DNA of 64,000 bases from Candidatus Poseidoniales archaeon (GTDB lineage Archaea; Thermoplasmatota; Poseidoniia; Poseidoniales; Poseidoniaceae): positions 9,073 to 73,072 of the forward strand of contig JAYOTG010000006.1 of the NCBI GenBank assembly GCA_038150305.1. Direction: 5' to 3'. The notes beneath the pieces were generated by a model that saw nothing but the letters and a program-made list of their open reading frames with translations, did no database searches and had not been told where the DNA came from. The position numbers were made by a program, and so were the translations under genes. Below are positions 3,406-60,148 of the stretch, one piece after another. Numbering within the stretch: position 1 is the stretch's first letter; the number at the start of each line of letters is the position of its first letter.

Positions 3406-3479
3406 GGCGAAGTGTCGGTTCATCCGACCGAAATTGCGGTGGCCTCAAGAGGCATCGGCCCGAGGCACCAACGGTTCCC

Positions 3480-6400: not shown

Positions 6401-7517
6401 CAGCCTCGATGGCTCTGCTGTGAACGGTGAGGTGTTTCACGTGGCGCTGACGGCCACCTCTTCCTTGGACAGCGCTGTTTCTGACGCAGTGATTCAGTCG
6501 GTCGTCTATCGCTCGCAGCAGGTGACCCTCGTCCTTGATGCCGACGCCACGAACGTCGAGGCTGGAGGTACTGTGTCTGGCACCCTTCGCCTTTCCACCC
6601 GCGTCGATGACCGGTTGTCCCTTTCAGCGTCTGGCGCCACATGCGATCTCCCAGGTCCAATGAACCTGAGCGGCTCAAGTGAACCGCTGGCTTGGTCGTG
6701 TACCATCGCCGAAACCGCGTCGGCGGGTCTTCTCGCGTTGAACGTCAGCGTTCGCAGCGCGGTTGGCGCCCTTGGAGCGGACGTCGTGGCCGGCGACGCC
6801 GTCGTGGTCACGGTGTTGCCGTCCTGGTCCGAGGCAGGCCCCCTCGAGGTGGTGGTCGAAGACGACGCCCTGTCGATCGAGACGAGCGGCTCGTCCACCA
6901 CCGTGGTTCGAATCACCAACACGGCCAACGCGTTGGCCGAGGGTGAACTGGAACTTGCAGGCTCGAACCTCGCCTACCTTCAGACCACGTGGGTCAGGCT
7001 CGGGGACGGTGCTCGAACGAGCAGTTTCTCGCTCGAGCCAGGAGCGTCGGCCCGCTACACCCTCGAGATGGTCCGCTTGACCACGAGCGCGTCCACCGCG
7101 GAGCCTGAGGTGCTTGCGACCTACACCTTGGCGGGCGTTGAGCGGTCGGACAGCGGCGGTACGATCGCCGTTGATCTTCCCGGGCCAACTTTGCCTCCTG
7201 GAGGCTTGGATCTTGGCTTCGCCCAGTTGAGCAACCAAGATTCCCTGATTGGTTTGACGTCAGGGTGGGTTGTTGCGCTGTTGCTTTTCGGCCTGCTTCG
7301 CATTCGTCGATCCTCGAACGCGCCAACCGAGGAAGAGCCTGATAAGGAACCCGAAGAGGAACCCGTTGAATTGGGTCACAACGAAGCGCGGATTGAGGAC
7401 GGGAACAGGGTGGCTTGCCCGAGTTGCGAGGCCGTGCTCGGCGTACCCGCCGGGAGTGAGCCCCCATTCAGGTTCACGTGCCCAACCTGCCAATCGAGCA
7501 TCCGTGTCTTGCCCTAA
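3480..7517 (+). CDS. giant surface protein: signal peptide, CARDB/Ig-like repeats, embedded SGNH/DUF4886-like esterase domain, C-terminal TM helix and cytoplasmic zinc ribbon
   Basis: ATG 3480 gives MTTERRSAVVLVVSLLLVSLSPIIGSAAADD, a signal peptide. Repeated beta-rich modules are present (VTLTITNNGSSIDSFDVEV, VTVPVHNDGNVVDTMLLDV). Positions 4134..4790 read YEVLMYGNSYT..VVLQDQS..LLMTWGRR..DGSHPSLHGSYLAAATLHA. The TM helix is LIGLTSGWVVALLLFGLLRI, and the tail contains CPSC..x17..CPTC. Confidence 0.8.
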   Translation: MTTERRSAVVLVVSLLLVSLSPIIGSAAADDAIHLSVDVQHVVLTPGAATNVTLTITNNGSSIDSFDVEVDNASLHPSWEVLALDATVTNVFPTWSKNTTIVVRLDGMGVPSHADTVELVVSDADGTAETRLTLALSVADVHAPRIEASGAGNGGLVVLQPGDVVDVTVPVHNDGNVVDTMLLDVNANPDLAGFWANWSSTGGSENVSSNQTGGNSTTSYEVLMYGNSYTAANGLDGLVQDLLREVGDANVSANAGGGMTLEGHRAKVNASGDAWNTSLSGQAWDMVVLQDQSQIPGFPRTQSDWVDSKDAAIALTERIDDEGADVMLLMTWGRRSGDSMNSVRYPNFTAMNDHLLQGYLDYANNATSAHPSASVFVAPVGLAFAKIHDDLLAIGTAPDQSGTLFHDLYTSDGSHPSLHGSYLAAATLHAAIHGGSPVGLALPSGINASAGQTLQLAAAHAVFNATSSWTYPWTASGSGTSASAVVGGDLLALFSDDVIENVSAFSSQSATLRLEVAPNAVPGDVGLDLVVASTQGNITSSSTLVVRIEAVPDLAIGNIDPSQLLPFGVASQTSVEVTNTGTSAAEWTWSLGANGAASCVWDLLDMSSSFTGPGDVDTVGLSVEVPPASSWPSGVQEVCEVELIASWANDSSVQVSRTVGFVVDERVDSTFDAPMSVDVDVETGTMWQATFQNAGSHDLSVTLTLMAPSPPLDACDGRMSTSLSSSSTQTVAAGTTGVWSFETTVDATDSCALTLEASTVHGVVTETVQLTPADHAALTVEGPSDARVVVEAGSAAEVNLTLDLTGTEDLALVLSTVGLPGGVTISDVSGATSYSLSSLAPSMIVTLAVVAGPEATTGDHDVTLTFTDSTHGSWALELAVQVGARRGVDVVATSGDGQGDDVPQDVDTPHPGAPTLGGLAQVTTSMTVVNTGANPATFVLDASTVHGSQELAVTLEQDVVSLAAGESAVISVHLSLDGSAVNGEVFHVALTATSSLDSAVSDAVIQSVVYRSQQVTLVLDADATNVEAGGTVSGTLRLSTRVDDRLSLSASGATCDLPGPMNLSGSSEPLAWSCTIAETASAGLLALNVSVRSAVGALGADVVAGDAVVVTVLPSWSEAGPLEVVVEDDALSIETSGSSTTVVRITNTANALAEGELELAGSNLAYLQTTWVRLGDGARTSSFSLEPGASARYTLEMVRLTTSASTAEPEVLATYTLAGVERSDSGGTIAVDLPGPTLPPGGLDLGFAQLSNQDSLIGLTSGWVVALLLFGLLRIRRSSNAPTEEEPDKEPEEEPVELGHNEARIEDGNRVACPSCEAVLGVPAGSEPPFRFTCPTCQSSIRVLP

Positions 7518-8305: not shown

Positions 8306-8365
8306 GGCCCCCGATTCGGCGGTCCCGATTTGACCTCTTCGGAACAAGGACACCACGCGCAATGT

Positions 8366-8373
8366 TTCATAAG
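8366..8373 (+). promoter_or_regulatory. TATA-like box TTCATAAG 29 nt upstream of ATG 8395
   Basis: The same octamer occurs upstream of sufC. It supports 8395 rather than 8362 as the start of the surface-protein gene. Confidence 0.4.
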
Positions 8374-8394
8374 TCTCACAGCCATCCTAGAATT

Positions 8395-11300
8395 ATGAAC
8401 CAAATGCGTACGCTGGCTGTCCTCCTTGTGGCGTTGATGATGGGCAGCCTTTCGGTTGGCCTTTCTTCGACCTTGGTCGACGTTCCTGAGGAACTGGACA
8501 ACACGCCTGCGGTCATGTCCGCCACCAGCCCGGGTCACCCGGTCTTTGCCGAGTACGTGGGTGCCCATTGGTGTGGCCCCTGTAAAACGTCATCAACGAA
8601 CCTCCACAGCCTCTATGGCAGCAACGGCGGTGGTGGAGGCACATCAGAGGACTTCACCTACATCTCATTTTACGAGTCATCGTCAACAGGTTGGCCCTCT
8701 GAGGCGCCCATCAATCGACGCTCGCACATCAACCCCACGGGGTATCCTACCGTGGTGTTCGGTGATGCGGCCTCAGGGCAATACAAGACCACTGGCGGGC
8801 AAAGCTACGACTCGTTCTACCAAAACGGCGGGAACATGCACAACGCCAACGATTACTCGCTTTCCATTGCCCAGTCGGAAAACGGCAACAACATGGACAT
8901 CGACATCACCGCAACCTACCTCGGTTCAGGAAGCAAGACGGTCTACATTTACGCCGCTGTGACGGAGGAAACTTCCCCCGAGACGTATGACGGAGGCTCT
9001 CCCAATCCACATCACGTTTGGAAGAAATGGCTTCTCAACGGTGCCGGAAGCGGGTTTGAATCCGTCACGCTAAGCAACGGAAATTCCGTGACCACCTCGT
9101 GGTCGGTGCCGATCAGCACCGTCCGCGCAGGCGGCGGTGTTACCGCGGCTGAGAACTTCCTGACCGTTGCCGCCCTCATGGACGGCGACCACACCACCCA
9201 TCGCAATGTGGTCAGCGCGGCGGACTCCAACATGGGTCCGAAGATGGACATCGGCGTCACCGGCATGTCGGTGAGCAACGACGATGCCTCCGATTCCTAC
9301 ATCCGCGGGGACACCGTTGATCTTGAGGTCACCGTTCGCAACACGGGCGACCTTGATTACGTCGACGGCGGCGGGGTGGAGTTCTACTACCAAAACGGTG
9401 TCAACAAGGTGACCATCGGCGGCACCCAATCTCTGCCTGCGACCGTCGCGACCACCGGCACGCACACGTACACGGCAAACTTCGACACCAGCGTCCTCTC
9501 TTCCAACGCCTGGAAGACGACCTTCGGGGCTCGTCTCACTGGCCTGACCGGAGACATGAGCAGTTCCAACAACGACGTGAACACCCAGTTTGATCACGAC
9601 CGACCGCCTGTGGCCCTGACGCCTCAGATCAGCCCGACGTCGGTCGAACGTGGCGACGAGGTGCTCATCACCGTTCGTGCCGATGCCAACGACGAGGTCG
9701 ACACGATCTCCAGCACCACGTTCGAACTCGAGACCCGTCCCTCCGGAACGGCCACGTGGTCGTCGAACGGCATCAGCGGTGGCGAAGATGTGGTCTTCGC
9801 CGGTTCGGAGTATGAAGGGCGCGAGTACACCTTTGCCACGACCACCGACATGGACGCGGGCACCTACGACCTTCGCGTTCGAGCCATCGACGCCCGCGGC
9901 CAGGCCTCCGATTGGAAGGTCGTCCTGGGAAGCGACGGCGTCACGGTGACCAACGCCCTGCCGACGATTTGGGCTGAACCTGTGCCGACCGTCATGTGCG
10001 ATGAGCCAACCAAGATCAGCATGGTGGGCCACATCATTGACCGCGAATCTGCCTTGTCCGAGCTCAGCGTGACGTCGACGTCTCCCTCTTTCCTTGGATG
10101 GGACGCCACCACGCAGGAGATTGAGGTGCTGTTCGCCTTTGACGATTTGCGTGGTTGCCCAATCGGCCAAAACGGCATTGAGGTCACAGTGAACGACGGC
10201 GAGGATTACACCAACAGTGACCTGCCGTACGGGACCCTCTTGTTCAACGTCATCGAGAACGGCCAGCCCCGCTGGGACGGCCTGCCCACGCGCACGGTTG
10301 ACGAAGGCGGTGAAGGCAACCTCGCCTTGTTCCCCTATGTCTTTGACACGGATGAACAGGGCACCCAGGTTGATTCCCAGGGCCTGACATTGTCCATCGT
10401 CAGCAACTCCAATCCCGAGGTGTTCAACGTCGGCCTTGAGGGCGATCTCCTCTCGTACAGCACCGTGGACGACGACGTCAACGGCGAGGCCACGGTTACC
10501 CTCCGCGCCAGCGACGGTGTGCAGGCCGCGGACCAAACCATCGTGCTCAAGGTTGCCCCGGTGAACGACGCACCTCGCATGGACCTTGGTGACCTTGCTT
10601 CGCTCGAACTGAAGCGCGGCAAGACCTACGTCTACGACATCCAGAGCCTCGTGTACGACATCGACGATGACGACGCTGCCTTCATTGTGGTGACGCCAAG
10701 CGAGAACGGAGCTGCACGCTTCGATTTGTTCACCGGCCTCATGACCGTCGAGTTCGAGGAACTCGGTACCCAGACCATCACCATCACGGCTCAGGACAAG
10801 TACGACTCGAACTCCTACACCATCATGGTGGACGTGTACGACTCGAAGCCCTTCTCCGCTTCGAAGGACGTGGACACCGGGTACATGACGGTCAGCCTCG
10901 ACAACGCCTACCTTGGCGAGGTCGCCACCGCCAACCTCTTCCTCACGGAAAATGCGCCCACCTTCACCTCGCTGACCACCATGTGGCAGGTGTGCGAAGG
11001 TGACACCGGCGTGTGCCTGAACCAAGTCAGCTACCCGCTTGACGTGACCGCCTCCGAGCGCGGCTGGACCATCGATCTCGCGTGGGACGATGTTCGCCCC
11101 TACGGCCTCCAGTACAACGACGACGTCAAGCTCGGCAACGTCCTTGCCACCGACGACACCGGTGAAGAGTACAAGCTCATGGCGCCGATCTACTGGCGCG
11201 TCACCGAGGAAGCGCCCGGTCCAAGCACGATGGACGATGAGACACTCGCTCTGCACATCACCGACCTTGAATCGAGCATTGAAGAGCTCAAGGCGGAAAT

Positions 11301-11775
11301 CGATGCATCGGAAGGAGACACCACCGACATGGAGGCTCAACTCGCGCTCCTCGAGGCTGACCTGGCGACCGCTTGCGATGACCCACGTGCGGACTGTTCC
11401 AGCGACGGCCTGCAGGGCAACGGCGACACGGAGACCAACGCTGGTTTCAACACGGACGTCATCATCTTGATCCTCGGGGTCCTGGTGCTTGCGGCTCTGC
11501 TCGGTGTGCTCTTCACGCGACGAGGCGGCTCCATGGAGCAGCCCAAGTGGGACGAATCCGCCCTGCCCGCGTCCGACGCCGTGGCCAACTCCATGTACGG
11601 AGGAGCACAAGACCTCTTCCAGCAGCCCATGGCGCCTGCCATGCCGGCCATGCCAACGATGCCTGCACCTGTTGCGCACGCCGGTCCGCCCCTGCCCGCC
11701 ACGGGCCTCCCAGAGGGTTGGACCATGGAGCAGTGGGCCTACTACGGCCAGCAATACTTGGACGGCCACCAGTGA
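8395..11775 (+). CDS. giant surface protein: signal peptide, thioredoxin-like WCGPC domain, CARDB and cadherin-like modules, coiled coil, TM helix, Trp-rich cytoplasmic tail
   Basis: [25 protein letters not shown] is a signal peptide. Domain landmarks are [28 protein letters not shown], the cadherin-like [11 protein letters not shown], and the coiled coil [17 protein letters not shown]. The TM helix is [19 protein letters not shown] and the tail ends [22 protein letters not shown]. Confidence 0.8.
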
Positions 11776-49373: not shown

Positions 49374-50273
49374 ATGGGCGAACTCGTCCATCTGGCTTTG
49401 CGGGTGGGTTACCTCGGCGATGCCTTTCACGGCAGCCAAATTCAGCCTGACGTGGTGACGGTTCAGGGAGAACTCCAGCGCGTCTTGCGCTCGCTTGGAT
49501 GGTGGAACGCCGAGGAGCACACCATGATCCTCGGCAGCCGCACCGACGCAGGCGTCAACGTGCGACGCAACGGGGGTCTGCTCACGCTCGACCGCGAGCT
49601 CTACGAAAAAATCGGGGACCGAAAATTGGTCCGCGCGATGGCCGATCGCTTGCCCGACCATCTTGCGGTCTTGGACGCCACCGAAGTGCCTCAAGGGTGG
49701 AACCCGCGGCTGGCGGATCACCGCGTGTACCGGTACCGTCTCGAGGGCATGGAGGGCTGGTGGGCCGACGACCAGGAACGATTACAGCGCCACCTCGACC
49801 TCTTTGTCGGCACCCATGACGTACGGAATTTTGCTCGCATGGAGGAGGGAAAAAACCCGATTCGAACGGTGGTGTCCGCCTCGCCATGGTCCGTTGGTGG
49901 CCGGATTGTGGGCTTCGAAATTGTCGGCCACTCCTTCCTCTGGAATCAGGTCCGCCGAATCGCGATGGCCGTCCACAGCATGGAACTCGGTCGATTGAGC
50001 GAGGACGAGGTCCGCGATGCCCTCCATCGGCCGGAGGTTCCGGTGGATTTCGGTGTGGCTCCGGCCGAGTGGCTCATCCTGTGGGACGTCGTTTGGGACG
50101 CCCTTCCGCCCGTCGCAAGCCCGGAACGGGCGATGACGTGGCAACCCTCGCCAACGCGCGCCGAGGGGGCTGAGCGGACCATGCGCCGCCGCTGGAGCGC
50201 CGCTGCATCGGCTGAGATCGAGGCGTTGCTGCACCACGAGTGGTCGGCGCTTGGACGCCTCCATTGGTCATGA
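49374..50273 (+). CDS. truA: tRNA pseudouridine synthase A (TruA/Pus1 family)
   Basis: LALRVGYLGDAFHGSQIQP, GSRTDAGVNV (catalytic Asp), HDVRNFAR and SFLWNQVRRI. Confidence 0.85.
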   Translation: MGELVHLALRVGYLGDAFHGSQIQPDVVTVQGELQRVLRSLGWWNAEEHTMILGSRTDAGVNVRRNGGLLTLDRELYEKIGDRKLVRAMADRLPDHLAVLDATEVPQGWNPRLADHRVYRYRLEGMEGWWADDQERLQRHLDLFVGTHDVRNFARMEEGKNPIRTVVSASPWSVGGRIVGFEIVGHSFLWNQVRRIAMAVHSMELGRLSEDEVRDALHRPEVPVDFGVAPAEWLILWDVVWDALPPVASPERAMTWQPSPTRAEGAERTMRRRWSAAASAEIEALLHHEWSALGRLHWS

Positions 50274-50741
50274 CGTGCTCAGGGTCAACGTCACGCGGTC
50301 TCCGTCCTCAAGCGACAGTCGCTCCCGGAGGAATTCCTTGGAAATGAGTTCGACCACGTCAATGTGGCGCGTCAGGTCAGGGATGAGCACAGCACATGGG
50401 ATGGAGGCTTCGCCGACCGTCATCGTCGCGAGGAAGGCGCTGGCACCGCCAAAGGACACACCGTCCCTGAGGAAACCACGGATGCGATGCAGGTCAAAGC
50501 CGGAGGTGTCCACGGCTTTGGCGGCGGCACGGACGTCATCATCCACGTCCAAGGTGTCGAGGCCTGCCAGTTGGCGAAGCGCGATGTAATCGATCAGGTC
50601 GCTGCCTTCCACGGTCACGTTCAGGGTGCCCGGCCAAGCCGTTGCACCAAGCAGGCCACGGAATTGGTCCTGGTAGTGCGGTTGGGCCATGAACACCTGC
50701 GCACGGCCAAGGCCGGTGCCCACCACGCCTGAGAGGTCCAC
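50268..50741 (-). CDS. ribK: CTP-dependent riboflavin kinase (archaeal RibK)
   Basis: DLSGVVGTGLGRAQVFMAQPHYQDQFRGLLGATAWPGTLNV..VLIPDLTRHIDVVELISKEFLRERLSLEDGDRVTL. GTG 50741 is preceded by GGGGGAGG; TTG 50810 is an alternative. The track start at 51104 overlaps kbl. Confidence 0.7.
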   Translation of the reverse strand: MDLSGVVGTGLGRAQVFMAQPHYQDQFRGLLGATAWPGTLNVTVEGSDLIDYIALRQLAGLDTLDVDDDVRAAAKAVDTSGFDLHRIRGFLRDGVSFGGASAFLATMTVGEASIPCAVLIPDLTRHIDVVELISKEFLRERLSLEDGDRVTLTLSTS

Positions 50742-50843
50742 GGTTCCGCGGGAAGCCTCCCCCTCTTCAAGCCGTGCATCGCTTCGTTCTGGTGGCTGCG
50801 GGATGCTCAAGAACCCGCGCGAACAGCGAGGGACGGGATTGGC

Positions 50844-52025
50844 ATGCCAGGTGACCTCTCGTGGATGCAAGCCAGATACGACGAACTCGCGGAGCGCTCC
50901 TTGCTCTGGGAGCCTCCGACCCTCGAAGGGCCGAGCGTTCCGCGTTGCCGGATGGACGGGAAGCCCACCATCATGCTCTCCGCCAACAATTACCTCAACC
51001 TCACCACCCACCCGAAAGTTGTCGATGCAGCGGTTGAGGCCACCAAGACCTACGGAGCGGGCAGCGGCTCGGTTCGAGCGATTGCCGGCACCATGGACCT
51101 CCACCTTGAGGCCGAGAAAGAAGTGGCCGCCTTCAAGCGAGCAGAGGCGGCGCTCATCTATTCCGCAGGCTACACGGCGAACGTGGGGTTGATCCCAAGC
51201 CTCGTCCGTGGCTCAGAGGACCTGATCATCAGCGACGAGTTGAACCACGGTTCGATCATCGACGGCGTTCGCCTCACCAAGGCCAGCCGGGCCGTGTATG
51301 CGCACAACGACATGGGCGCGCTGGAAGAGGTGTTGAACGCCAACAAGGCAGCGGAACGCAAACTCATCATCACCGACGGCGTCTTTTCCATGGACGGCGA
51401 CATCGCGCCTTTGGACGAGATTGTGGCCTTGGCCGAAGAGCACGATGCCATGATCATGGTCGACGATTGTCACGGCGAGGGCGTCCTCGGTGAAGGTGGC
51501 CGGGGCATCGTAGACCATTTCAACGTCCACGGCAAGGTGGAATTCGAAATCGGTTCCTTCTCCAAGGCCCTCGGCGTTCAGGGCGGCATCATGGCGGGCT
51601 CAGAACTCAGCCGCCAGCACGCGCTGAACCACTCGCGATCGTGGCTGCTTTCCGGCTCACAACCCCCCGGTGTCGCCGCGGCCCAGCGGGCTGCCATTCA
51701 GGTGCTTCAGGAGGAGCCGGAACACCACCAGCGCTTGTGGGACAACACCGCGTATTTCCGAGGGGAACTCCAGAGCCTCGGTTTCGATACGGGCGTTTCG
51801 GAGACGCCGATCATTCCCGTCATGTGCGGCCCATCGAAGACCGCGAAGGCCCTCTCCGCCGCGCTCGCGGGCGAGGGCGTCATGGCCGGTGCGATCGTCT
51901 TCCCGATGGTGGCGCGCGACAAGGCCCGTGTCCGCACCCAGATGTCTGCAGGGCTCACGCGTGATGACCTCGACGACGTGTTGCGCATCTTCGAGCGCGT
52001 CGGCGGCCACTTGGGCCTGCTTTGA
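50844..52025 (+). CDS. kbl: 2-amino-3-ketobutyrate CoA ligase / 8-amino-7-oxononanoate synthase family (PLP acyltransferase)
   Basis: LSANNYLNLTTHPKVV, GSGSVRAIAGTMDLHLEAEKEVA, VDDCHG and GSFSKALG (PLP lysine). Confidence 0.85.
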   Translation: MPGDLSWMQARYDELAERSLLWEPPTLEGPSVPRCRMDGKPTIMLSANNYLNLTTHPKVVDAAVEATKTYGAGSGSVRAIAGTMDLHLEAEKEVAAFKRAEAALIYSAGYTANVGLIPSLVRGSEDLIISDELNHGSIIDGVRLTKASRAVYAHNDMGALEEVLNANKAAERKLIITDGVFSMDGDIAPLDEIVALAEEHDAMIMVDDCHGEGVLGEGGRGIVDHFNVHGKVEFEIGSFSKALGVQGGIMAGSELSRQHALNHSRSWLLSGSQPPGVAAAQRAAIQVLQEEPEHHQRLWDNTAYFRGELQSLGFDTGVSETPIIPVMCGPSKTAKALSAALAGEGVMAGAIVFPMVARDKARVRTQMSAGLTRDDLDDVLRIFERVGGHLGLL

Positions 52026-52026
52026 C

Positions 52027-52674
52027 TCATTCCTCTTCGGAGAGGATGGTGTCGAGCACGTCCTTGAGGTCGTCGTCGTCCTCAACGATGGCTTCCATGT
52101 CCGTCTCGGTGTCAACCGGCTCAATGCCGACGTCTTCGAAGGGGTCCAAGCCATCTTCGAGACGGCAGAGCATGCGCCACCTCGGCGCCCAACTGAGGTG
52201 CACGTACAACGGGCCCGGCAGCAGGAGCAGGAACCACACCAAGGCGGCAGGAAGGGCGAGCAACTCGGTGATGTTGGCGCCGAGCACCGCGAGACCGACG
52301 AAGGGCATCGCGTACAGGACGGTGCGTGGCGGGGCCACGGGCGGTCGCTTGGAAAAGCGGGCGATGATGAGGGACGCGAAGCCGAGCAGCATGCACGCTG
52401 CGATGAGCAAGGACGCGTGGAAGATCCACGTCGGCCACCAAAAGGCGTCGCCGTAGGACACCCTGTAGGGCAGCAGCAACGCCATGGCGATGAGGATGCC
52501 ATAGAATCCTGCAACGTTGGCAGGGTGGTTCAGCCACATGGGGAGGCTGACGAAGCGTCGTGAGAGCGACGTTCCAAGCAGCAATTCCGCCTGTTTTGGG
52601 GCGAGGTGGTCCAATCCAGACCGCCAGTCCGCCCCTGTCATGGGCCGTGGCTTTTCTTTCGGGATTATGAACAT
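52027..52674 (-). CDS. hypothetical membrane protein with acidic C-terminal tail
   Basis: About 4 TM helices, ending DTETDMEAIVEDDDDLKDVLDTILSEEE. ATG 52674 is taken because the track start at 52848 overlaps the upstream gene. Confidence 0.5.
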   Translation of the reverse strand: MFIIPKEKPRPMTGADWRSGLDHLAPKQAELLLGTSLSRRFVSLPMWLNHPANVAGFYGILIAMALLLPYRVSYGDAFWWPTWIFHASLLIAACMLLGFASLIIARFSKRPPVAPPRTVLYAMPFVGLAVLGANITELLALPAALVWFLLLLPGPLYVHLSWAPRWRMLCRLEDGLDPFEDVGIEPVDTETDMEAIVEDDDDLKDVLDTILSEEE

Positions 52675-52708
52675 GAAGGGAGGCGGATGTGCTTCGCAGC
52701 ACTTCTGC

Positions 52709-53341
52709 TCACTTCGGTGTGCGGGCCGTCTCCAGCCAGCGGGAGAGCGCGGAGCCCCCATCGAGGGCGTCCTCCTCCTGCGGCCACTCGCGTTCCAACA
52801 GCTCCGTTTCCCCCGCAGCGCGTCGGCGCGCTTCCTCTGCTTGCTCATCGTGCCCGTTCACCGCGTCTCGGAGGGCCAGCGCGGTGTTGCCGATGACCAA
52901 CCAGCGCTGAAGTCGTGCGGCGGAAGATGCGGGCCAACGCACGACGGTGTCCCACGGTTCGTGGTCCTCCACCACCAGAGGTTCGCCAAGAAGAGGATCC
53001 GTGTGCAATTTCAACCGGTGGTCTCCCAATTCCTTCCACGTGCCGTCGGCCGCTCGAATCGCCACTTCGGCCGAGCCCATCGCTTGGTCGAGGACCCAAG
53101 GGTGGTTGGCGTTCACCGCGAAGGGAAGGTCCCTGAGCCCTTGGCTTCGACGCCACTGGACGCCAGCCAAAACCAGCAACAGAAGGGCAGGCGCGAGAAG
53201 AACTCTGGCGTTGAGGGCAAGAAGCAGACCAAGTGCGCCACACACGGCCATCACCTGGGCGCTCGTTCGTGTGGTCTTGGCCACCTCATCACCCACCTCG
53301 GTTGTACCGAGTTCCAGGAAGCCACGCGGCGGTTCAGTCAC
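52709..53341 (-). CDS. hypothetical membrane protein
   Basis: Two N-terminal TM helices (VMAVCGALGLLLAL, LLAPALLLLVLAGV) followed by a soluble domain. 8-nt overlap with the upstream DUF309 gene. Confidence 0.45.
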   Translation of the reverse strand: MTEPPRGFLELGTTEVGDEVAKTTRTSAQVMAVCGALGLLLALNARVLLAPALLLLVLAGVQWRRSQGLRDLPFAVNANHPWVLDQAMGSAEVAIRAADGTWKELGDHRLKLHTDPLLGEPLVVEDHEPWDTVVRWPASSAARLQRWLVIGNTALALRDAVNGHDEQAEEARRRAAGETELLEREWPQEEDALDGGSALSRWLETARTPK

Positions 53342-53735
53342 GGGCTTCCCTCATGTGCATGGGGAGGCGCAGTCCCTCTTGGTTCATCGTGCAGCGCTCT
53401 GCGTCATGTGCAAAAGGCTCGAGCATGGACAGCAAGGCCTGGACGTTCACGCCCCACGCGTCCACGAAGCCGGCCAGTTTGGGCTGGAGTTTTGCCCATT
53501 GATTCAGCACGCCGCGCGTGGTCCCGCGTCGGTGGTTGTACAACAAGGCCGCGCATTGGATCAATCCCTGAAGGAGCAGCACGTCCCTTGGCGCGGCTTT
53601 TCTCGCCTTCATCGAGACCCAGGCGTCCTCCCACGCCTCGTGGGCTTCCCACCATCGCCCTGCGTCGAACTCCTGACGGCCCAACTCGAATTGAATGGGC
53701 TCCTCGTCCTGCAACGCGGCAGGTGCTTCGCCCAT
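53334..53735 (-). CDS. DUF309 domain protein
   Basis: GRQEFDAGRWWEAHEAWEDAW...LLLQGLIQCAALLYNHRRGTTRG matches the DUF309 pattern (yWEAHE.wE..W ... lqGLIq.A). Start taken at ATG 53735. Confidence 0.65.
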   Translation of the reverse strand: MGEAPAALQDEEPIQFELGRQEFDAGRWWEAHEAWEDAWVSMKARKAAPRDVLLLQGLIQCAALLYNHRRGTTRGVLNQWAKLQPKLAGFVDAWGVNVQALLSMLEPFAHDAERCTMNQEGLRLPMHMREARD

Positions 53736-53833
53736 GCTGCGGCCTCGTTGAGACGGGGAATAAACTCCCGTGCGGGACCTTGCAAGCGACGTGACCTTCA
53801 AACGCCGTCATCGCCGCTGAAGAGGGGAGCAAG

Positions 53834-55534
53834 ATGGTGGACTGGCCACGCGGGGAAGTGCTTGAGGTTCGGCGCGGTGGTGCCGAAGTGCTCGAGGTCA
53901 TGCTCGCTGATGCGGCCACCCTCGGTTTGAGCGGGGCGCTGATGGTCCGTGGAAGCGAGGGTGCATCCGGCGTCCTCGCGCTCGCCTCGGGCGCTCCAGT
54001 TGGCGCCCTTCACGATCAGGACGGCGTGCTTCGATGCGGCGAGGAGGCCCTCGGTCCCTTCCGTGAGCTGTTACGAAGCGGCGCAACAGAAGTCGAGGTG
54101 CACCACCTCCCAGGTTCGCTGGTTCAAGAAGCGCTGGCGATGCACGAAGGGAGCCGCTTTGCCCATGGTGTCGAGCATGAGGATGTGCGTTGGTGGGAAG
54201 GCCGCCTCCCAACACCACGGCGATCACGCGCCCCAAGGCTGCCCACCATGGCGCCGACGGTGCGTGCACCCGAGGAGGTGCGCGAATCCATCGACCGCAC
54301 GCGCACTCGGCTTCACGTCGACAGCGTCGACCTTGCGCCGGGGAGTGTGCGCTTGGTGCACGCCGATTCGCCGGAGGCCTTGGAGCGCATGGCGTCCATG
54401 TGGGCCAAGGCAGGCGGGTGCAGCATCATGCTGACCCGGCGCGCTGAAGACGTGCCCGAAGGCGTCCATCACCTCTGGATTCACGAAGGGGCACTGAACC
54501 TGCCCGACGCGGCCCTTGGCGATGAGCCACTCCTCGTGGTGAGCGTTGACCTGCACCTCCTCTCGGTCATGCTTGGCCCTGAAGTGGCCGCTTCCTCCTT
54601 CGCTGACGTGCTCGATCACGGTCGCGAACGTGGCGCAGTCCACCTGCTCCATATCGACGAACAGATCCTGACCACGGCTGAATTTACTCGCTTCTCTCGG
54701 TATGGGGCGCCAATGCCGGTTGATGACGTCGCTGCGCTTGCCAGCGATGAGCGCAGCCTCAAGGGCCTGAGCGGGTTCGACATGGACGTGATTCTTCGCA
54801 CCAGGGAGCGCTTGGCTCCCGGCGTTGAAACGGCCCTGGAGCCTGAACCTGAAGTCATCGTCGAGGTCGAGCCCGTCGCGCCAGCACCGGAGCCGAGGCC
54901 TGAACCCATGCCGGAACCCGTCGTTGAGGAGGTCGTCGAGGATGCTCCTCCTCCCGTCACTCGAGGCCCGCGTCGCGCCAAGCGCGTGCGGGCCCGCAGG
55001 CCTGCTCCACGACGTGACGCGCGTGTCGAGAAATTCTCGCCGCCACGCGGCGATGTGCCTGCGGCGACATGGCCCTCTCGACATGCATCGAACAGCACCC
55101 CTGACCTTGTCCGGAACGCACCCGCCTCCGCCGATGGCCTCCCAGCATCCCGCCAGATCAAAGCGCTTGGATTGGCTCGTGTGCGTGACCTGCCTGCCAT
55201 GGAACCGCTCGTGAACAAGCCACCACTGGCGAGGCCAGAGGTCTGGCCCGATGCGCCACCGACGGACGCCATGAAGCGGAGGCAAGCATGGGACTCCCTC
55301 CGTCTGGCGCGCCGCTACGCGCCAGAGCAAAGGCCTGTCACCGTCCCGAAGAGCAAGGGCTTGCGCGAGGCGGCTGTGCGTGCCCAGCAGTCCTTTGACG
55401 TCGACGGTGCACACGCACGTCTGTTCACCTCGCACGACGATTCGCCTGCAGCGCCTTCCGTCGAGGATGCGCCCAAACGGCGCCGTCGAACGACGCGCAA
55501 GACCCGGCGACTTGGTGGTGATGACGATGCGTGA
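53834..55534 (+). CDS. hypothetical multidomain protein with Pro/Glu-rich linker and Arg-rich tail (DUF4388-like N-terminus and DUF835-like middle are tentative)
   Basis: The N-terminus LSGALMVRGSEGASGVLALASGAPVGALHDQDGVLRCGEEALGPFRELL fits the G.l.l..G.iv.A....GeeAl pattern. The middle reads LAPGSVRLVHADSPEALERMASMWAKAGGCSIMLTRR..HHLWI. The linker is EPEPEVIVEVEPVAPAPEPRPEPMPEP and the tails are RRAKRVRARRPAPRR and KRRRRTTRKTRR. Confidence 0.5.
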   Translation: MVDWPRGEVLEVRRGGAEVLEVMLADAATLGLSGALMVRGSEGASGVLALASGAPVGALHDQDGVLRCGEEALGPFRELLRSGATEVEVHHLPGSLVQEALAMHEGSRFAHGVEHEDVRWWEGRLPTPRRSRAPRLPTMAPTVRAPEEVRESIDRTRTRLHVDSVDLAPGSVRLVHADSPEALERMASMWAKAGGCSIMLTRRAEDVPEGVHHLWIHEGALNLPDAALGDEPLLVVSVDLHLLSVMLGPEVAASSFADVLDHGRERGAVHLLHIDEQILTTAEFTRFSRYGAPMPVDDVAALASDERSLKGLSGFDMDVILRTRERLAPGVETALEPEPEVIVEVEPVAPAPEPRPEPMPEPVVEEVVEDAPPPVTRGPRRAKRVRARRPAPRRDARVEKFSPPRGDVPAATWPSRHASNSTPDLVRNAPASADGLPASRQIKALGLARVRDLPAMEPLVNKPPLARPEVWPDAPPTDAMKRRQAWDSLRLARRYAPEQRPVTVPKSKGLREAAVRAQQSFDVDGAHARLFTSHDDSPAAPSVEDAPKRRRRTTRKTRRLGGDDDA

Positions 55535-57185
55535 TTCACCGCTCCGAGCAGCAGCCCTCCGCGCGCGCCGTAGCATGGGTCGAACCGAGCCTTCAGGGCC
55601 TGCAGATTCGCCGCCGTCCGGCCTCGTCGAGGCCCTCTCGACGCGGGTCGATCGACCAAAGGTGAGCCGCCCGCGCTCCATCACGGCATGGCGGCCGACT
55701 GAGGACGCCCGCGCCTCACCGCCGGAGGAACAAGGCCTGGAAGGAGAATTGGCCCGTCGTTTGTCCCGTCGTGTGGAGGGGCACGTGTCGACCTTTCACC
55801 CTGATTCTGCCGCGGGTGACGTTACCACCGCCCAAGCGTTCGGAGAGGGCCTTGGAGGTCATCCCTTGTGGCAGTCCGTGCTCGGGCACGATTCGCGCCC
55901 GCGAAGGCCAGCCTCTCCTCTTCCCGAAGCGTGGGCATGGGGCTTACGCTGGTCCGACCAGCACACCTTCCGTCAGTGGACCGTGCTGGAGAGCAACCGT
56001 GAAGCCACCGGATGGGCCGACCACGTCATCGCACATCCCACGGACATCAACCCCCTCGTGATCCGAGGTGCAGGCGGAACAGGGCGAAGTCATCTGCTCC
56101 ATGCCACCGGTCAAGCCATGCTGCGGGGCCAACAGGGTGGTGTCGTGCTCCTGCGCCATCCAGCGTCGATGTCCCTCGATGAAATGGACGCGCAGCTCAC
56201 CGAAATCGACATGCGTCTTTCGACGTCGAGCGGTCTGCTGATCGACGACATCGATCGCGTAATGCACGATGCAGACCGAAGCAGGCGGCTCCACCACATA
56301 GTCGATCTTGCGATGAACCTCGGCGTCCAAGTCGTGGTCGTCTGTGAGCACCCGCCTGCAGCGTGGCCATCCAGCCCCCTCGCTCGGGTGATGCAAGAGG
56401 GTGTGGTCACGACGATGGCCTCCCCTGGGCCCGTCGATCGCTTGGCAGCGCTCCGTTCGATCGTCATCCGCGAGGGTTTGGTCGTCGAAAATACGGACTT
56501 GCAACAGATTGCGGAAGGCCATCCCACGTGGCGGTCGTTGGACAACGCCCTTCGCGCCCACCTACACGCCTCCGATTCGCGTTACGCGGAACCCGCTCCA
56601 TCGGTCACGGATCACGTCGAGACCGCCACGACGGTCATCGAGCGTGCGCTCGATGCGGTCGATGCCGGCGGCGTCATTGGCGGCATCGAGTTGATGGCTC
56701 CAGTGCCTGAACTCTCCGATGCATGGTCGCCGGACGTCCCGGAAGCAGAGGAATTGTTGGCTGGCGCTCCTCGCCCCGAAGGGCCTGCTCGCGCCGTGTT
56801 GGAGGTGGTCCGGGACCCGCGGGTGGACCAATTGCTGCGGCCGGACGAGCGTGATCAATACCTCGTTCGCAACGTCGAGCATCTTGAGGCCAGCGATGCG
56901 GTACGTGCGGCCGAAGCTCTGGTGGAGATCGACCTTGGTGCCGAGACCGCCATCGCCCGTCGTCGGCACCACGCCGAGGATCAGAGCCTTCGTCTCGAGG
57001 CCCTCAAGGCTCGAATGGAGGCCTTGGCCGACCAGGCGCGAGAGGCCGATGTCGAAGCCCTGCTGGCCATCACGGATGAGCTCCAAGCCATCGACGAGGA
57101 GTTGGAGCGAATCGCGCAGAACGCTCGCGGCCCCGCTCGTTTGGCCATGCTGCGTCCAGTCCGTGTCCCGGAGGAGGGGGCGTGA
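55521..57185 (+). CDS. DnaA/Hda-like AAA+ protein (Walker A Lys replaced by Arg) with acidic coiled-coil C-terminus
   Basis: HTFRQWTVLESNREA, INPLVIRGAGGTGRSHLLHATGQA, GLLIDDIDRV, VQVVVVCEHPP, PGPVDRLAALRSIV and WRSLDNAL are colinear with DnaA domain III landmarks. No DnaA domain IV is present. Start uncertain (ATG 55521, 55527 or 55575). Confidence 0.6.
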   Translation: MTMRDSPLRAAALRARRSMGRTEPSGPADSPPSGLVEALSTRVDRPKVSRPRSITAWRPTEDARASPPEEQGLEGELARRLSRRVEGHVSTFHPDSAAGDVTTAQAFGEGLGGHPLWQSVLGHDSRPRRPASPLPEAWAWGLRWSDQHTFRQWTVLESNREATGWADHVIAHPTDINPLVIRGAGGTGRSHLLHATGQAMLRGQQGGVVLLRHPASMSLDEMDAQLTEIDMRLSTSSGLLIDDIDRVMHDADRSRRLHHIVDLAMNLGVQVVVVCEHPPAAWPSSPLARVMQEGVVTTMASPGPVDRLAALRSIVIREGLVVENTDLQQIAEGHPTWRSLDNALRAHLHASDSRYAEPAPSVTDHVETATTVIERALDAVDAGGVIGGIELMAPVPELSDAWSPDVPEAEELLAGAPRPEGPARAVLEVVRDPRVDQLLRPDERDQYLVRNVEHLEASDAVRAAEALVEIDLGAETAIARRRHHAEDQSLRLEALKARMEALADQAREADVEALLAITDELQAIDEELERIAQNARGPARLAMLRPVRVPEEGA

Positions 57186-57652
57186 GGCGAACGCCGTGGT
57201 GGAACGCCGGCGTCAATTTCGCCTGCCAACCGGATTGCGGCGCGTGTTGCGATCAACCCGGTGGCGTGGTGTTTCTTTCTCGCACCGACATTCAGCGTCT
57301 CGCTGCACGAGCGGGCATGGAGGAACTTGAATGGATTCGTCGGGACTGCACCACGTCCCTGAACGGAAGGCTCGTCCTTCGGAGCCGCCCCTCCGACGGC
57401 ATTTGCATCTACCTGCAAGGCGACAAACGCTGCTCGGTCTACAGCGACCGGCCGCAGCAGTGCGCCGCCTTTCCATGGTGGTCCGAAAACCTCCGTTCCA
57501 TGCGGGCATGGCGCAGCATCAAGGAGACCTGCCCAGGCATCGACGCTCCTGATGCGCTGCGCGTTGAGGGTGATGTCATTCGGCTCCATGTCGGGCGTGA
57601 CCTCGAAGCCGGAAAGGGCGTTCGGCTCCCACTGCCGCCCCTCGACGCGTAA
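57182..57652 (+). CDS. YkgJ/UPF0153 family cysteine-cluster (CxxCxxCC) protein
   Basis: FACQPDCGACCDQPGGVVFL..GICIYLQGDKRCSVYSDRPQQCAAFPWW. GTG 57182 overlaps the upstream TGA (GTGA). Confidence 0.75.
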   Translation: MRRTPWWNAGVNFACQPDCGACCDQPGGVVFLSRTDIQRLAARAGMEELEWIRRDCTTSLNGRLVLRSRPSDGICIYLQGDKRCSVYSDRPQQCAAFPWWSENLRSMRAWRSIKETCPGIDAPDALRVEGDVIRLHVGRDLEAGKGVRLPLPPLDA

Positions 57653-57668
57653 AACCCACAGAGCCGGA

Positions 57669-57674
57669 TTTATA
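57669..57674 (+). promoter_or_regulatory. TATA box (TTTATA) upstream of citrate synthase
   Basis: GGATTTATACGG lies 39 nt upstream of ATG 57708, implying a leader of about 10 nt. Confidence 0.4.
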
Positions 57675-57707
57675 CGGAGTGCCGCTGACGCGTGACCCGG
57701 TGCAGCG

Positions 57708-58871
57708 ATGACCAACGACGAGCCACTCCTGTCGGTCACCTCTGCTCACCTCAACACCGGGCTTCGTGGCATCCCCGTCGGGACGTGCCGGACCTCCTTT
57801 GTGACCCCGACCGAGGGCGTGCATTACTGCGGTTATCCCATCGCAGAATTGGCTGCCATGGACGTGGAGGACGTCATTTATCTCCTGTTTCACAAGGAAC
57901 TCCCCACCGCAGAACAATCCATTGCGTTCCGCGCCGACCTGTCGGCTCGTGGTGCGGTGCCCGAGGGCGTGGCCACCGTCTACGCTGCTCTGCCACGTGA
58001 AGGCCACCCGATGGACTGGCTGAGCGTCGGGATGCACACGCTCGGGATGGCCGAGACCACTGGAGATTGGTTGGAGGACGCCCTCAACCTCGTGGCCCGC
58101 ATGCCACGCGTGATGGGCCTGCTCTTCCGCTACCGAGAGGGTCGTAGCGAAGGCATCCCTGCGGACGACCTCAGTCTGGGTCTCGTCGATCGCTTCATCG
58201 CGACCTTGGACCCCGAGGGCGTTGATCGCTCAATCATGCGCGAAGTGCTCAACGCCTACCTCGTGCTTCACCTTGATCACGGCGGCGGCAACCTGTCCAC
58301 CTTCACCGGCAAGGCCACCGCAAGCGGCAAGGCCACCCTGTACGCTTCGATGGCCAGCGCCATGAACAGCCTCTCAGGTCCACTCCACGGACGTGCGAAT
58401 CAGTCGTGTTTGGAGTTCGTCCTTGGCATCGGAACGTCCGATCCCGCAGAGGTTGAATCCTTCATTCGCGGCGAGCTTGAGGCCAAGCGACCGGTGTTTG
58501 GATTCGGCCATGCCGTGCTCCGCGCCGAGGACCCGCGCGCCACGTACCAATTCGCGTTGGGTGAGCGGCTGTGCCCCGACGACGAGAACTTCGCGATCAT
58601 CCGCACTCTGCGCGAGGTGGCGCCCCGCGTCTTGGCGGAGAACCCGAAAATCTCCAATCCCAACGCAAATGTCGACATCGCAAGCGGGACCCTCCTTCAC
58701 CACGTTGGCCTCCGAAACCCGGAGTACTACACGACCTTCTTCGGTTGGGCCCGTGTGGCCGGCATTGGTGCGCAAATCGTCGATGAACGCACCGTGATGC
58801 GTGACGGTAAGGGTGTGCCCATCTACCGTCCCAAGTACATCGCCGAGGAGCAATCGCTCCGTCACGTCTGA
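57708..58871 (+). CDS. gltA: citrate synthase (type I/2-methylcitrate synthase-like)
   Basis: GLRGIPVGTCRTSFV, LVLHLDHGGGNLSTF, LSGPLHGRANQ, GFGHAVLRAEDPRA and NVDIASG. Confidence 0.9.
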   Translation: MTNDEPLLSVTSAHLNTGLRGIPVGTCRTSFVTPTEGVHYCGYPIAELAAMDVEDVIYLLFHKELPTAEQSIAFRADLSARGAVPEGVATVYAALPREGHPMDWLSVGMHTLGMAETTGDWLEDALNLVARMPRVMGLLFRYREGRSEGIPADDLSLGLVDRFIATLDPEGVDRSIMREVLNAYLVLHLDHGGGNLSTFTGKATASGKATLYASMASAMNSLSGPLHGRANQSCLEFVLGIGTSDPAEVESFIRGELEAKRPVFGFGHAVLRAEDPRATYQFALGERLCPDDENFAIIRTLREVAPRVLAENPKISNPNANVDIASGTLLHHVGLRNPEYYTTFFGWARVAGIGAQIVDERTVMRDGKGVPIYRPKYIAEEQSLRHV

Positions 58872-60148
58872 GACGTGACGCGGTGCAACACGGGGCGAGG
58901 CGTCTTGCCTGCTCCGCGATGACCGACCATGCGAACGGCTTCCCATGGCATCGTGCTGCCGCTTTCGTCGACGTCGGCCATCAGGTCATCCACCTCGCGT
59001 TTCCATCCCCAGCGCTTGCGCCACGCCTCCAGGTGGCGTCCATGAGCGGCTTTGTCGAGTTCGTGCCAAGGGGCCACCTCGCGTTCGAGATCCCTGAGCA
59101 TGCTTCTTGCCTCCTCGTCAGAGGCCACGCTTGGCATGCCGCCGTCCAGCGGTGCGGTGGCCAGCCGCTTCCATCGCAGCCGTCCGTCAACGTGACGTAC
59201 GCGTGGATCGGCGACGCTGTCCGAAACCAAACTCAGGCCGGCATCGATGAGGGCCGTCTCCATGCGGTACGGAGCGGGCCAGACGTATGCGGGAAAGCCT
59301 TCCAACGTCGCCTTAAGGCGCTCCCGAGCACGACCCGTCAAGCCGACGCTTCGTCCCAAGGGGAGGTGACGTCGTATGCTGTGCATGTAGTCGAGCGCAC
59401 ACGGCATCATCGGCGAACCGGCAGCACGGTGGCTCTTGACCAAGCGGGCGAAGGAATTGCGGATGAAGGACGGTGCGGCGACCGCACGCTGTGCAGCGCC
59501 GCTGCCGTACGGCGGAAGGTTCGGGGTCAAGCGTGACCAAGGACGGGACCACCCAGAGGTCTTGACGAGGTCGCGCATCCTCGGATGAAAGGCATACAGC
59601 ACCGTGTTTTGCTCGGGGATGTCAGCTTCCTTGAGGGCCGCCGCCACGTGTTGCGTCAGGACGGACATGTGCGCAAGGTCCCGGCGGTCATCGTTCCACC
59701 ACCCTCGGCCGATGTGTCTTGGGTGCGGGCGCTTGATTTCGATGACGCCGACTTTGGCCTGTTCTCGCCAGGCGGTTGAGATGACGGGGTCAGCGAGCAT
59801 CTCGTCGAATGTCTCGGCGCCGAATTCGCGGAGTTCCTCCAAGGTCCACGCTTCCACGTAGGGGGGTCGTCCCTCCTTCTCGTGTTTGGGGATCATTGGT
59901 GTGCGATCATGGTGGAGCACGAGATGGCCGTCGAGGGTCATGCGGAGGTCGAATTCGATGCCGTCCGCATGGACCATGGCTTCGCGAAGGGCGGCGAGTG
60001 AGTTTTCGGGCAACTCCCTCGCCATGCCATAGCCTCGCCCTCCTCCTTCATCAAGGCGAGGAATGCAGCCTCCGGAAAGAAGGGTCAGAACATCAACAAC
60101 GTGGGAATGCTCAAGCGGGAACCGTTTGAGGCAGGCCCATGAGCCCAT
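58862..60148 (-). CDS. glycerophosphodiester phosphodiesterase (GDPD) domain protein with unusual termini
   Basis: ELPENSLAALREAMVHADGIEFDLRMTLDGHLVLHHD is the GDPD core. The expected upstream HRG is GRG. A canonical VGHRGAG sits 15 aa from the C-terminus. An alternative start at ATG 60025 has a CTTGATGA box 29 nt upstream. Confidence 0.65.
   Translation of the reverse strand: MGSWACLKRFPLEHSHVVDVLTLLSGGCIPRLDEGGGRGYGMARELPENSLAALREAMVHADGIEFDLRMTLDGHLVLHHDRTPMIPKHEKEGRPPYVEAWTLEELREFGAETFDEMLADPVISTAWREQAKVGVIEIKRPHPRHIGRGWWNDDRRDLAHMSVLTQHVAAALKEADIPEQNTVLYAFHPRMRDLVKTSGWSRPWSRLTPNLPPYGSGAAQRAVAAPSFIRNSFARLVKSHRAAGSPMMPCALDYMHSIRRHLPLGRSVGLTGRARERLKATLEGFPAYVWPAPYRMETALIDAGLSLVSDSVADPRVRHVDGRLRWKRLATAPLDGGMPSVASDEEARSMLRDLEREVAPWHELDKAAHGRHLEAWRKRWGWKREVDDLMADVDESGSTMPWEAVRMVGHRGAGKTPRPVLHRVTSQT

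Follow-up and report, generated by a model that had tools for sequence, protein, structure and literature searches.

Three adjacent genes on the plus strand, here called A, B and C, overlap at both junctions in a 64,000-nt stretch of DNA (hereafter the window; contig JAYOTG010000006.1, positions 9,073 to 73,072) that is a chromosome fragment of the Poseidoniales (Marine Group II archaea, MGII), an order whose members rank among the most abundant archaea of the plankton. In textbooks DnaA is the replication initiator of bacteria, and archaea are taught to lack it. The protein encoded by gene B is a derivative of domain III of DnaA, its AAA+ domain, and is not itself a DnaA, an Hda, a DnaC/IstB or an Orc1/Cdc6; this follows from profile searches, comparison with sequences of solved structures, structural matching and a family-specific hidden Markov model (HMM), together with the absence of DnaA domains I and IV. 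Single-chain proteins of other Thermoplasmata unite the domains of A and B in one polypeptide. We therefore favour, with a probability of roughly 0.55, the reading that A-B-C is a vertically inherited and apparently core operon of Poseidoniales, a split version of a Thermoplasmata PATAN-like/DnaA-AAA+/DUF835 chain, and that it acts as a signalling-type switch.

With these genes, an AAA+ domain of the DnaA family turns up in a domain of life that is new for it, in a new architecture and with new partners: a DnaA-derived ATPase is conserved in Poseidoniales, and an intact, fused form of it occurs in other Thermoplasmata. An earlier note on this DNA had held the combination to be undescribed, and we likewise found no description in the searchable literature, where an earlier passing mention may exist. 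No paper was found that links DnaA with Poseidoniales, MGII or Thermoplasmatota, or that mentions DUF2226, the family type to which we compare the N-terminal domain of A. DnaA goes unmentioned in a global survey of archaeal replication genes, which does record Cdc6/Orc1 in MGII (PMC3914693). At least one pipeline, JGI/IMG, labels these proteins 'chromosomal replication initiator protein DnaA', a label that is almost certainly wrong and that could mislead origin prediction as well as metabolic and cell-cycle reconstructions.

The features of the operon are given below; the three open reading frames (ORFs) lie where the earlier note had placed them, and all of the motif strings that it quoted occur in the translation.

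53834..55534, plus strand: gene A, 566 aa; N-terminal domain, DUF835-like domain, acidic Pro/Glu-rich linker and Arg-rich C-terminal region
53834..54142, plus strand: N-terminal domain of A, about aa 1-103; probably PATAN/DUF4388-like (DUF2226-type)
54329..54706, plus strand: DUF835-like (inactivated KaiC) domain of A, about aa 166-291
55521..55534, plus strand: A/B overlap; ATG 55521 and ATG 55527 both precede the stop codon of A (TGA, 55532-55534)
55521..57185, plus strand: gene B, 554 aa (552 aa from 55527); DnaA-type AAA+ protein with N- and C-terminal extensions of its own
55953..56570, plus strand: AAA+ module of B, aa 145-350; N-box HTFRQW..ESNREA, Walker A GGTGRS, Walker B LLIDD, lid with sensor-2 WR338
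56889..57119, plus strand: predicted long C-terminal helices of B (coiled-coil-like), aa 457-533
57182..57185, plus strand: B/C overlap, GTGA, with GGAGGAGGGGG just upstream
57182..57652, plus strand: gene C, 156 aa; putative Zn- or Fe-binding CxxCxxCC protein

Protein B, a derivative of DnaA domain III

The motif-based assignment of B to the DnaA/Hda type, rather than to Orc1/Cdc6, IstB or generic AAA+ proteins, is upheld by profile, PDB and structural searches. Residues 146-281 match the Pfam family Bac_DnaA (PF00308) at E=3.2e-10 (40.9 bits; cut-off 23), no Orc/Cdc6, IstB or generic AAA family lies above the Pfam threshold, and no Cdc6/Orc family appears at E<=1 in Pfam or NCBIfam. The NCBIfam scores are 55.4 bits for DnaA (TIGR00362; cut-off 343.9), 50.2 bits for Hda (TIGR03420; cut-off 194.8) and 21.6 bits for IstB (NF038214; cut-off 200), and a phmmer search of B against all PDB sequences returned DnaA chains only. 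An AlphaFold model of B, predicted from a 19-sequence alignment, has block-mean pLDDT values of 74-94, mostly 86-94, over residues 141-350, which include the AAA+ core (145-350). When this model was compared with known structures by Foldseek, ranks 1-14 were all DnaA domain III or Hda (E 1.6e-13 to 2.8e-8), followed by p97 and RFC, and no Orc/Cdc6 chain was among the 50 best matches. Lastly, with an order-wide HMM derived from 72 AAA+ domains of the B family, genuine DnaA proteins reach 74-96 bits, E. coli Hda reaches 25 and E. coli DnaC 23; by this measure B is nearer to DnaA than to Hda. Other clades of B score 30-55 bits against Bac_DnaA. The likeness of B to DnaA is far beyond chance.

The rest of DnaA is missing. 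Neither the DNA-binding domain IV (PF08299) nor domain I (PF11638) has a match in window B or in four divergent orthologues, and both are absent in every clade of B, domain IV being the one whose loss the earlier note had pointed out; an ordinary Chloroflexota DnaA recovered by the same scan (L075), which served as a control, shows DnaA_N, Bac_DnaA (221 bits) and Bac_DnaA_C (70 bits). The coiled-coil-like end proposed for B takes the form, in the model, of two long predicted helices, H457-507 and H511-533 (pLDDT 62-89), and the C-terminal pattern L..Le..M..L..ra..Ad..eLi.I.DELr is conserved across the order. Neighbour joining of AAA+ domains recovers the B family as monophyletic (100% bootstrap), on a long branch beside Hda and one domain of a bacterial tandem AAA+ protein (described below); few DnaA sequences were included, and the tree does not settle the sister group.

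The ATPase motifs of B have degenerated to different degrees. In a motif table of 72 sequences, with residues counted over 71 distinct Poseidoniaceae-type B sequences, the N-box (TF[KR]QW..EN..AT), Walker B (DD) and the helix SHLLHATGQ (71/71) are invariant or nearly so, and the sensor-2 Arg is kept in nearly all sequences, with Gly in two (TWGSV). The Walker-A lysine is lost in 44 of the 71: 27 sequences have Lys at this position, 13 have Arg (the window clade, with GGTGRS in window B, a substitution that the earlier note had passed over) and 31, including Poseidonia spp., have Cys, the last clade having lost the first P-loop glycine as well. The sensor-1 column varies across the family and holds Glu in the window clade, and the column aligned with the arginine finger of E. 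coli DnaA, R285, holds V, M or L. Because two more divergent lineages of B retain GKT/GKS, Lys is the ancestral Walker-A state.

We infer from these residues that ATP hydrolysis is not a conserved requirement of the B family and that window B would be at best a slow ATPase; nucleotide binding may persist. Since the window clade combines a Walker-A Arg with a sensor-1 Glu and has no Arg at the R285 finger position, its B protein is probably a scaffold that either binds nucleotide and hydrolyses it poorly or works independently of nucleotide. The natural K/R/C series at the Walker-A lysine amounts to a ready-made experiment on the passage from an AAA+ switch to a pseudo-ATPase. We also observed that K- and C-type orthologues (e.g. 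L020 and L022) end in a conserved ...LAR[IL].P...L.GEEE tail, which looks like a short linear docking motif, and that the C-terminus of window-clade B reads ...RPVRVPEEGA.

Linkage of A and B in fused and split forms

The earlier note had described A as a 566-aa protein with an Arg-rich tail of nucleic-acid-binding appearance. The tail is there, as a disordered stretch, and the C-terminal region of A is Arg/Lys-rich in all clades, but that account was incomplete, as A also has a probable PATAN-like domain and, by orthology, a DUF835 domain. Window A, searched whole and in pieces, has no match in Pfam (E<=10) or NCBIfam. Its orthologues, found in Poseidoniales only, align over their full length where they have diverged, and the central region of divergent orthologues matches DUF835 (PF05763, a domain of ~136 positions) at 54-81 bits (cut-off 33); window A would thus be a DUF835 member by orthology, with a sequence that has diverged here. 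Galperin et al. 2018 (PMC5847659) count DUF835, as an inactivated KaiC or 'iKaiC', among the output domains of response regulators in archaea.

For the N-terminal domain, we searched a profile of the first ~120 residues of A against 1.84e9 representative proteins with hmmsearch, which returned 101 proteins, A proteins of Poseidoniales among them. The profile matches at E=1.9e-6 a Theionarchaea protein (P0166) that consists of the domain in triplicate, and Pfam assigns DUF2226 (51.8 bits) and DUF4388/PATAN (PF14332; 35.8 bits, cut-off 25) to this protein. Direct comparison of the domain with PATAN profiles by hhalign gave P=0.008, and P=0.0008 with a broader profile; nothing significant came from hhalign of A against single PATAN sequences, and a word-indexed homologue search with the N-domain found fragments from Poseidoniales only. 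With moderate confidence, we regard the domain as PATAN/DUF4388-like. Roadblock/LC7 was also considered as its identity and was rejected (P=0.07-0.57).

Evidence that A and B belong together comes from fused proteins. Six cluster representatives of 613-768 aa, from other Thermoplasmata, carry the N-domain, a Bac_DnaA domain (154-227 bits, with an Hda-type lid) and DUF835 in one chain; because the query held the N-domain of A only, the presence of AAA+ and DUF835 in these proteins is independent evidence. In hhalign comparisons the N-domain of A matches that of the fused proteins at a probability of 98.3% (E=1.2e-14), and the A family as a whole matches them at 98.5% (E=1.6e-15) over a span that runs from AAA+ to DUF835 rather than over DUF835 alone, and at 96.9% over a stretch that starts at the N-domain. 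The B family matches them at 99.4%, and its N-terminal extension has no similarity to their linker (P=0.23). The AAA+ motifs of the fused proteins are fully canonical, NVRELGGAL included, so that every catalytic motif of DnaA is kept.

The fused genes stand in archaeal housekeeping contexts (PGK, a ProRS/ThrRS-type synthetase, Rpb4, L21e, Pus10 and DUF655), and the products of neighbouring genes cluster at >=90% identity with proteins named 'Thermoplasmata archaeon'. On the Thermoplasmata-type contigs L161-L164 and L169-L171, and in each of four lineages compared, with three different neighbourhoods, the fused gene is followed by a convergent gene for a protein of 428-641 aa that begins with double zinc ribbons, continues through an acidic linker and ends in helical repeats. 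A KaiC-like ATPase (PF06745) is encoded two genes away in L161 and L171. With phmmer, the zinc-ribbon protein matched none of the proteins encoded at the window locus. Split and fused forms alike adjoin a Cys-rich metal-binding protein, and these two metal-binding proteins are not homologous. The fusion argues that A and B work together, and it provides a concrete and testable prediction, namely that the two proteins form a complex.

The split genes were followed across Poseidoniales by a pattern scan of one genome per GTDB species, which yielded 69 loci, all of Poseidoniales type except the L075 control and a few that were evidently mis-binned. Contigs with the triad in three metagenome-assembled genomes labelled Salinimicrobium sp., Salipiger bermudensis and Verrucomicrobiales bacterium (L011, L040 and L047) are probably binning contaminants. 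The three genes stay together in Poseidoniales, which the earlier note had proposed as a check: they are adjacent and on the same strand in every locus long enough to judge. With overlap lengths called by a nearest-start-codon heuristic, the stop of A and the start of B overlap by 4 nt in 43 of the 59 evaluable loci, by 8 nt in 13 (the window clade) and by 1 nt in 3, and the stop of B and the start of C overlap by 4 nt in 61 of 61. These overlaps persist where identity of B to the window protein falls to 25-31% and where an HMM scarcely picks up A (E 1e-5 to 1e-12); the junctions have thus been preserved through long divergence. In two lineages that have diverged further (L165-L168), a gap of 30-60 nt separates the adjacent genes A and B, and the CxxCxxCC gene lies beside them on the opposite strand. 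Fusion, overlaps and universal adjacency together make the A-B link strong; that of C to A-B is weaker and confined to one lineage of Poseidoniales.

C matches the CxxCxxCC/YkgJ family (PF03692) over residues 14-117 (41.7 bits; cut-off 23) and contains the motif CQPDCGACC, in agreement with its earlier description as a CxxCxxCC protein; we found no relative of C with a solved structure. Two database proteins, P0052 and P0079, have C-termini (...CLLYTSDAADE and ...YTHLTLPTNSLV, respectively) unrelated to those of their homologues. They resemble assembly artefacts that stem from adapters, in proteins of public metagenomes.

At the nucleotide level, the 14-nt overlap of A and B is as previously reported, with ATG 55521 ahead of the stop codon of A. 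A second in-frame ATG at 55527 gives an 8-nt overlap with A, ATGCGTGA, and the position of a Shine-Dalgarno-like GGTGGTGA at 55514-55521 favours 55527 over 55521 as the start of B, whose open frame extends upstream to GTG 55380. GTG 57182 overlaps the TGA of B (57183-57185) as GTGA, again as reported. The upstream ATG used by many orthologues of A (8 codons earlier, MAAE..SKM) is ATC at 53810 in the window, and ATG 53834 is for this reason the usable start of A.

The archaeal origin of the DNA is confirmed by genes in the window for archaeal LonB and for an archaeosine tRNA-guanine transglycosylase (TGT) with a PUA domain, and by homologues of A and B named Candidatus Poseidoniales or Poseidoniaceae archaeon. 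Local gene order is syntenic throughout Poseidoniales: pseudouridine synthase, riboflavin kinase, aminotransferase, two small genes, DUF309, A-B-C, citrate synthase, GDPD and TatC. The operon is preceded by the following feature.

53736..53833, no strand: short intergenic stretch from which the DUF309 gene (minus strand) and gene A diverge; presumed to hold the promoter

The DUF309 gene, named by its Pfam family, starts at ~53735, as judged from the length of orthologous products (132-133 aa). Two small minus-strand genes (about 204 and 210 aa; 52027-53341), without a Pfam match, lie between the aminotransferase and DUF309 genes; together with DUF309 they are transcribed divergently from A-B-C, and their position is kept in all Poseidoniales loci examined. 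Elsewhere in the window, a long plus-strand ORF at 3402-7517 (1371 aa) has a C-terminal zinc ribbon (FGT1-type, 29 bits) as its sole match, and another at 8362-11775 (1137 aa) has no Pfam match.

This setting bears on whether the operon could be cargo of a mobile element or of a defence system, with B as a recently acquired IstB/DnaC-like helper ATPase or STAND-like defence NTPase. Weak, sub-threshold matches to IstB (21.6 bits) and nSTAND_NTPase5 (21.6 bits; cut-off 34) would fit such an origin. The DnaA scores of B far exceed its IstB score, however, PADLOC gave no match for A, B or C at E<=0.01, the locus has no transposase, integrase or flanking repeats, and the GC content of A-B-C equals that of its surroundings. 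The genes moreover hold a fixed position between housekeeping genes in about 69 species, and this conserved chromosomal position, together with vertical divergence, effectively refutes the cargo hypothesis, which we rate as highly improbable.

We give even less credence to the possibility that B is a decaying, functionless remnant of a transferred dnaA, with ORFs that persist by chance in a GC-rich genome. The degenerate catalytic residues and the many spurious ORFs of the GC-rich window are compatible with decay, but reading frames, domain boundaries, overlaps and the invariant blocks, SHLLHATGQ among them, are all kept at 25-31% identity in a family that is monophyletic at full bootstrap support, and this pattern of conservation refutes it.

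A proposed signalling switch and its alternatives

B derives from the AAA+ domain III of a bacterial DnaA, most probably through ancient horizontal transfer; it has lost domains I and IV and gained lineage-specific extensions that end in a coiled coil. Taking the observed homologies, fusion, synteny, conserved coupling and motif states as given, we infer the remaining steps of the mechanism as follows. A single mRNA would yield A and B at a fixed ratio, and the two would assemble into a stoichiometric complex equivalent to the fused protein, in which the DnaA-type module supplies nucleotide-dependent self-association, perhaps constitutive in the window clade. The PATAN-like domain of A would act as a protein-protein adaptor that docks a partner, and PATAN response regulators are reported to bind the motor ATPase PilB1 (bioRxiv 10.1101/2021.06.11.447907). 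Through the inactivated KaiC domain of A, the complex would be linked to signalling ATPases of the KaiC type or to some other partner. C, which would share the mRNA of A and B in this lineage, may contribute a metal or redox input, the weakest link of the scheme. The complex as a whole would be a signalling or cell-organisation switch built on a nucleotide-binding scaffold, and not a replication initiator.

That B starts replication is very unlikely, because it has no DNA-binding domain, because no origin signature accompanies it and because MGII carries Cdc6/Orc1 (PMC3914693). The earlier note had suggested looking for a GC-skew switch or ORB-like repeats near the operon, and neither was found: GC skew is flat in the window, and there are no ORB-like repeats or repeat clusters in 50000-60000. 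There is also no dnaN and there are no DnaA boxes beside B, the neighbours being the DUF309, citrate synthase and GDPD genes.

A subtler connection to replication would be a regulatory one, in which B, together with A, acts on Orc1/Cdc6 or on the origin to control replication or the cell cycle, either by Hda-like docking or as a DnaA-like filament on single-stranded DNA, with the tail of A providing DNA affinity. B does fall in the DnaA/Hda branch of the initiator clade, and Hda is likewise a DnaA domain III without domain IV; the basic C-terminal region of A in all clades and the complete catalytic motifs of the fused proteins also speak for such a role. The specifics expected of Hda are missing, however: B scores about 50 bits against a cut-off of 195 for the Hda equivalog, no clamp-binding motif of the QL[SP]LPL type and no PIP-like motif was seen by eye at its conserved termini, and the Arg equivalent to R285, which Hda-type action needs, is not conserved. 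The loss of the Walker-A lysine in most sequences, the lack of an origin signature nearby and the signalling-type nature of the partner domains (PATAN-like and inactivated KaiC) further count against it, and we consider a regulator of replication unlikely, if less so than the other alternatives.

Another alternative dispenses with signalling and treats the proteins as a structural complex of the chromosome or nucleoid, in which the AAA+ domain and coiled coil of B allow it to polymerise and the basic tail of A tethers the polymer to nucleic acid. The long C-terminal helices of B, its conserved acidic GEEE terminus, the basic tail of A and a degenerate P-loop that would suit a structural role are all consistent with this. 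However, the tails are of low complexity and poorly conserved apart from short motifs, no DNA-binding domain was detected in A, B or C, and the fused relatives end at DUF835 and have no basic tail, so we judge such a complex to be rather improbable.

Several points also weigh against the signalling switch that we favour. Domain order differs between the two forms, with N-domain, AAA+ and DUF835 in the fused proteins and N-domain and DUF835 in split A, and the split form is therefore not the product of simple fission; nor is the AAA+ domain of B detectably closer to that of the fused archaeal proteins than to bacterial DnaA. The entire surrounding gene order is conserved in Poseidoniales, so synteny alone says little within the order, and it is the fusion and the overlaps that carry the argument. 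Regarding A, the window protein itself has no Pfam match, its PATAN assignment is transitive, through the Theionarchaea protein, with direct profile-profile P values of about 1e-3, and its structure model, derived from a shallow alignment, has a pLDDT of 40 and is unusable, which makes the lack of any Foldseek match at E<=0.001 to this model meaningless. Moreover, AAA+ domains of the initiator clade are able to bind DNA without domain IV, which together with the basic tail of A leaves room for a DNA-linked role, and Poseidoniales are uncultured.

Comparison with known systems

A parallel to the archaeal operon comes from bacteria. In our first search, the nearest non-archaeal matches to B were proteins of ~650 aa with two tandem DnaA-type AAA+ domains, encoded in operons with the order PATAN-TPR proteins, TPR, two Roadblock/LC7, MglA-like small GTPase, tandem AAA+, PATAN-PATAN-TPR, CheR, CheD and CheB. 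This order is kept in at least 40 bacterial loci from soil metagenomes (L006 and L077-L156), with at least 582 matching stretches in a metagenome scan, and no description of a tandem-DnaA/PATAN/Roadblock/Che operon was found in the literature. The order-wide HMM of B scores the tandem-protein domains at 53-84 bits, which is not specifically closer than DnaA. By analogy, the occurrence of DnaA-type AAA+ domains beside PATAN in two separate settings supports a non-replicative role of the signalling or polarity type.

A bolder version of the favoured reading, which we regard as tentative and on balance doubtful, is that a DnaA ATPase module acquired by horizontal transfer was rebuilt in Thermoplasmatota into the core of an undescribed PATAN-like/DnaA-AAA+/inactivated-KaiC machine, fused in Thermoplasmata and split in Poseidoniales, and that the tandem AAA+ operons of bacteria are its independently assembled counterpart. 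If this were true, DnaA-type AAA+ domains would serve a second purpose outside replication, as switches that oligomerise in polarity or signalling systems. In an archaeal group that is among the most abundant of the ocean, such a switch might make the cell cycle or the organisation of the cell responsive to an environmental, metal or redox signal.

Among described systems, bacterial DnaA shares with B the AAA+ subfamily of domain III, by sequence profile and by predicted fold, and B keeps its N-box (TFxxF/W..xxN..A), the P-loop followed by HLLHA.G, Walker B (hhhDD) and a lid with the sensor-2 Arg. Unlike DnaA, B has no domains I, II or IV and is not encoded near dnaN or DnaA boxes; it has Arg at Walker A here and Cys elsewhere, and its sensor-1 and R285 positions are not conserved. 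It also has new N- and C-terminal extensions, belongs to an archaeal host with Cdc6/Orc1, and is translationally coupled to a protein with PATAN-like and inactivated KaiC domains. Hda/HdaA resembles B in being a DnaA-type AAA+ protein without a DNA-binding domain, and its structures 3bos and 5x06 are among the best structural matches of B. Hda, however, is about 230 aa long, with an N-terminal clamp-binding motif and a functional arginine finger, whereas B has 554 aa and neither of these.

The archaeal response regulators and other DUF835 proteins of PMC5847659 carry the domain that is central in orthologues of A and that also ends the fused Thermoplasmata proteins; the DUF835 architectures given in the available part of that paper contain REC, and the combination of PATAN-like, DUF835 and DnaA-type AAA+ domains is absent from its available table rows and text. 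A differs from these regulators in having no REC, in its N-terminal PATAN-like partner domain and in its combination with a DnaA-type AAA+ protein. The PATAN (DUF4388) regulators PatA and PixG/PixE share with the N-domain of A the core pattern ...tG.l.v....G.l.f..G..v.A....G.eAL, and they differ from it by an alpha-helical insertion in PATAN and by REC, both absent from A; the host of A is archaeal, and direct similarity is weak.

The operon as a whole has counterparts in the fused Thermoplasmata proteins, which also carry the JGI label DnaA. They contain all three domains of A and B and resemble the operon in their housekeeping context and Cys-rich neighbour, and they differ from it in being one polypeptide with another domain order and a canonical ATPase, accompanied by a convergent zinc-ribbon protein where the Poseidoniales operon has a CxxCxxCC protein.

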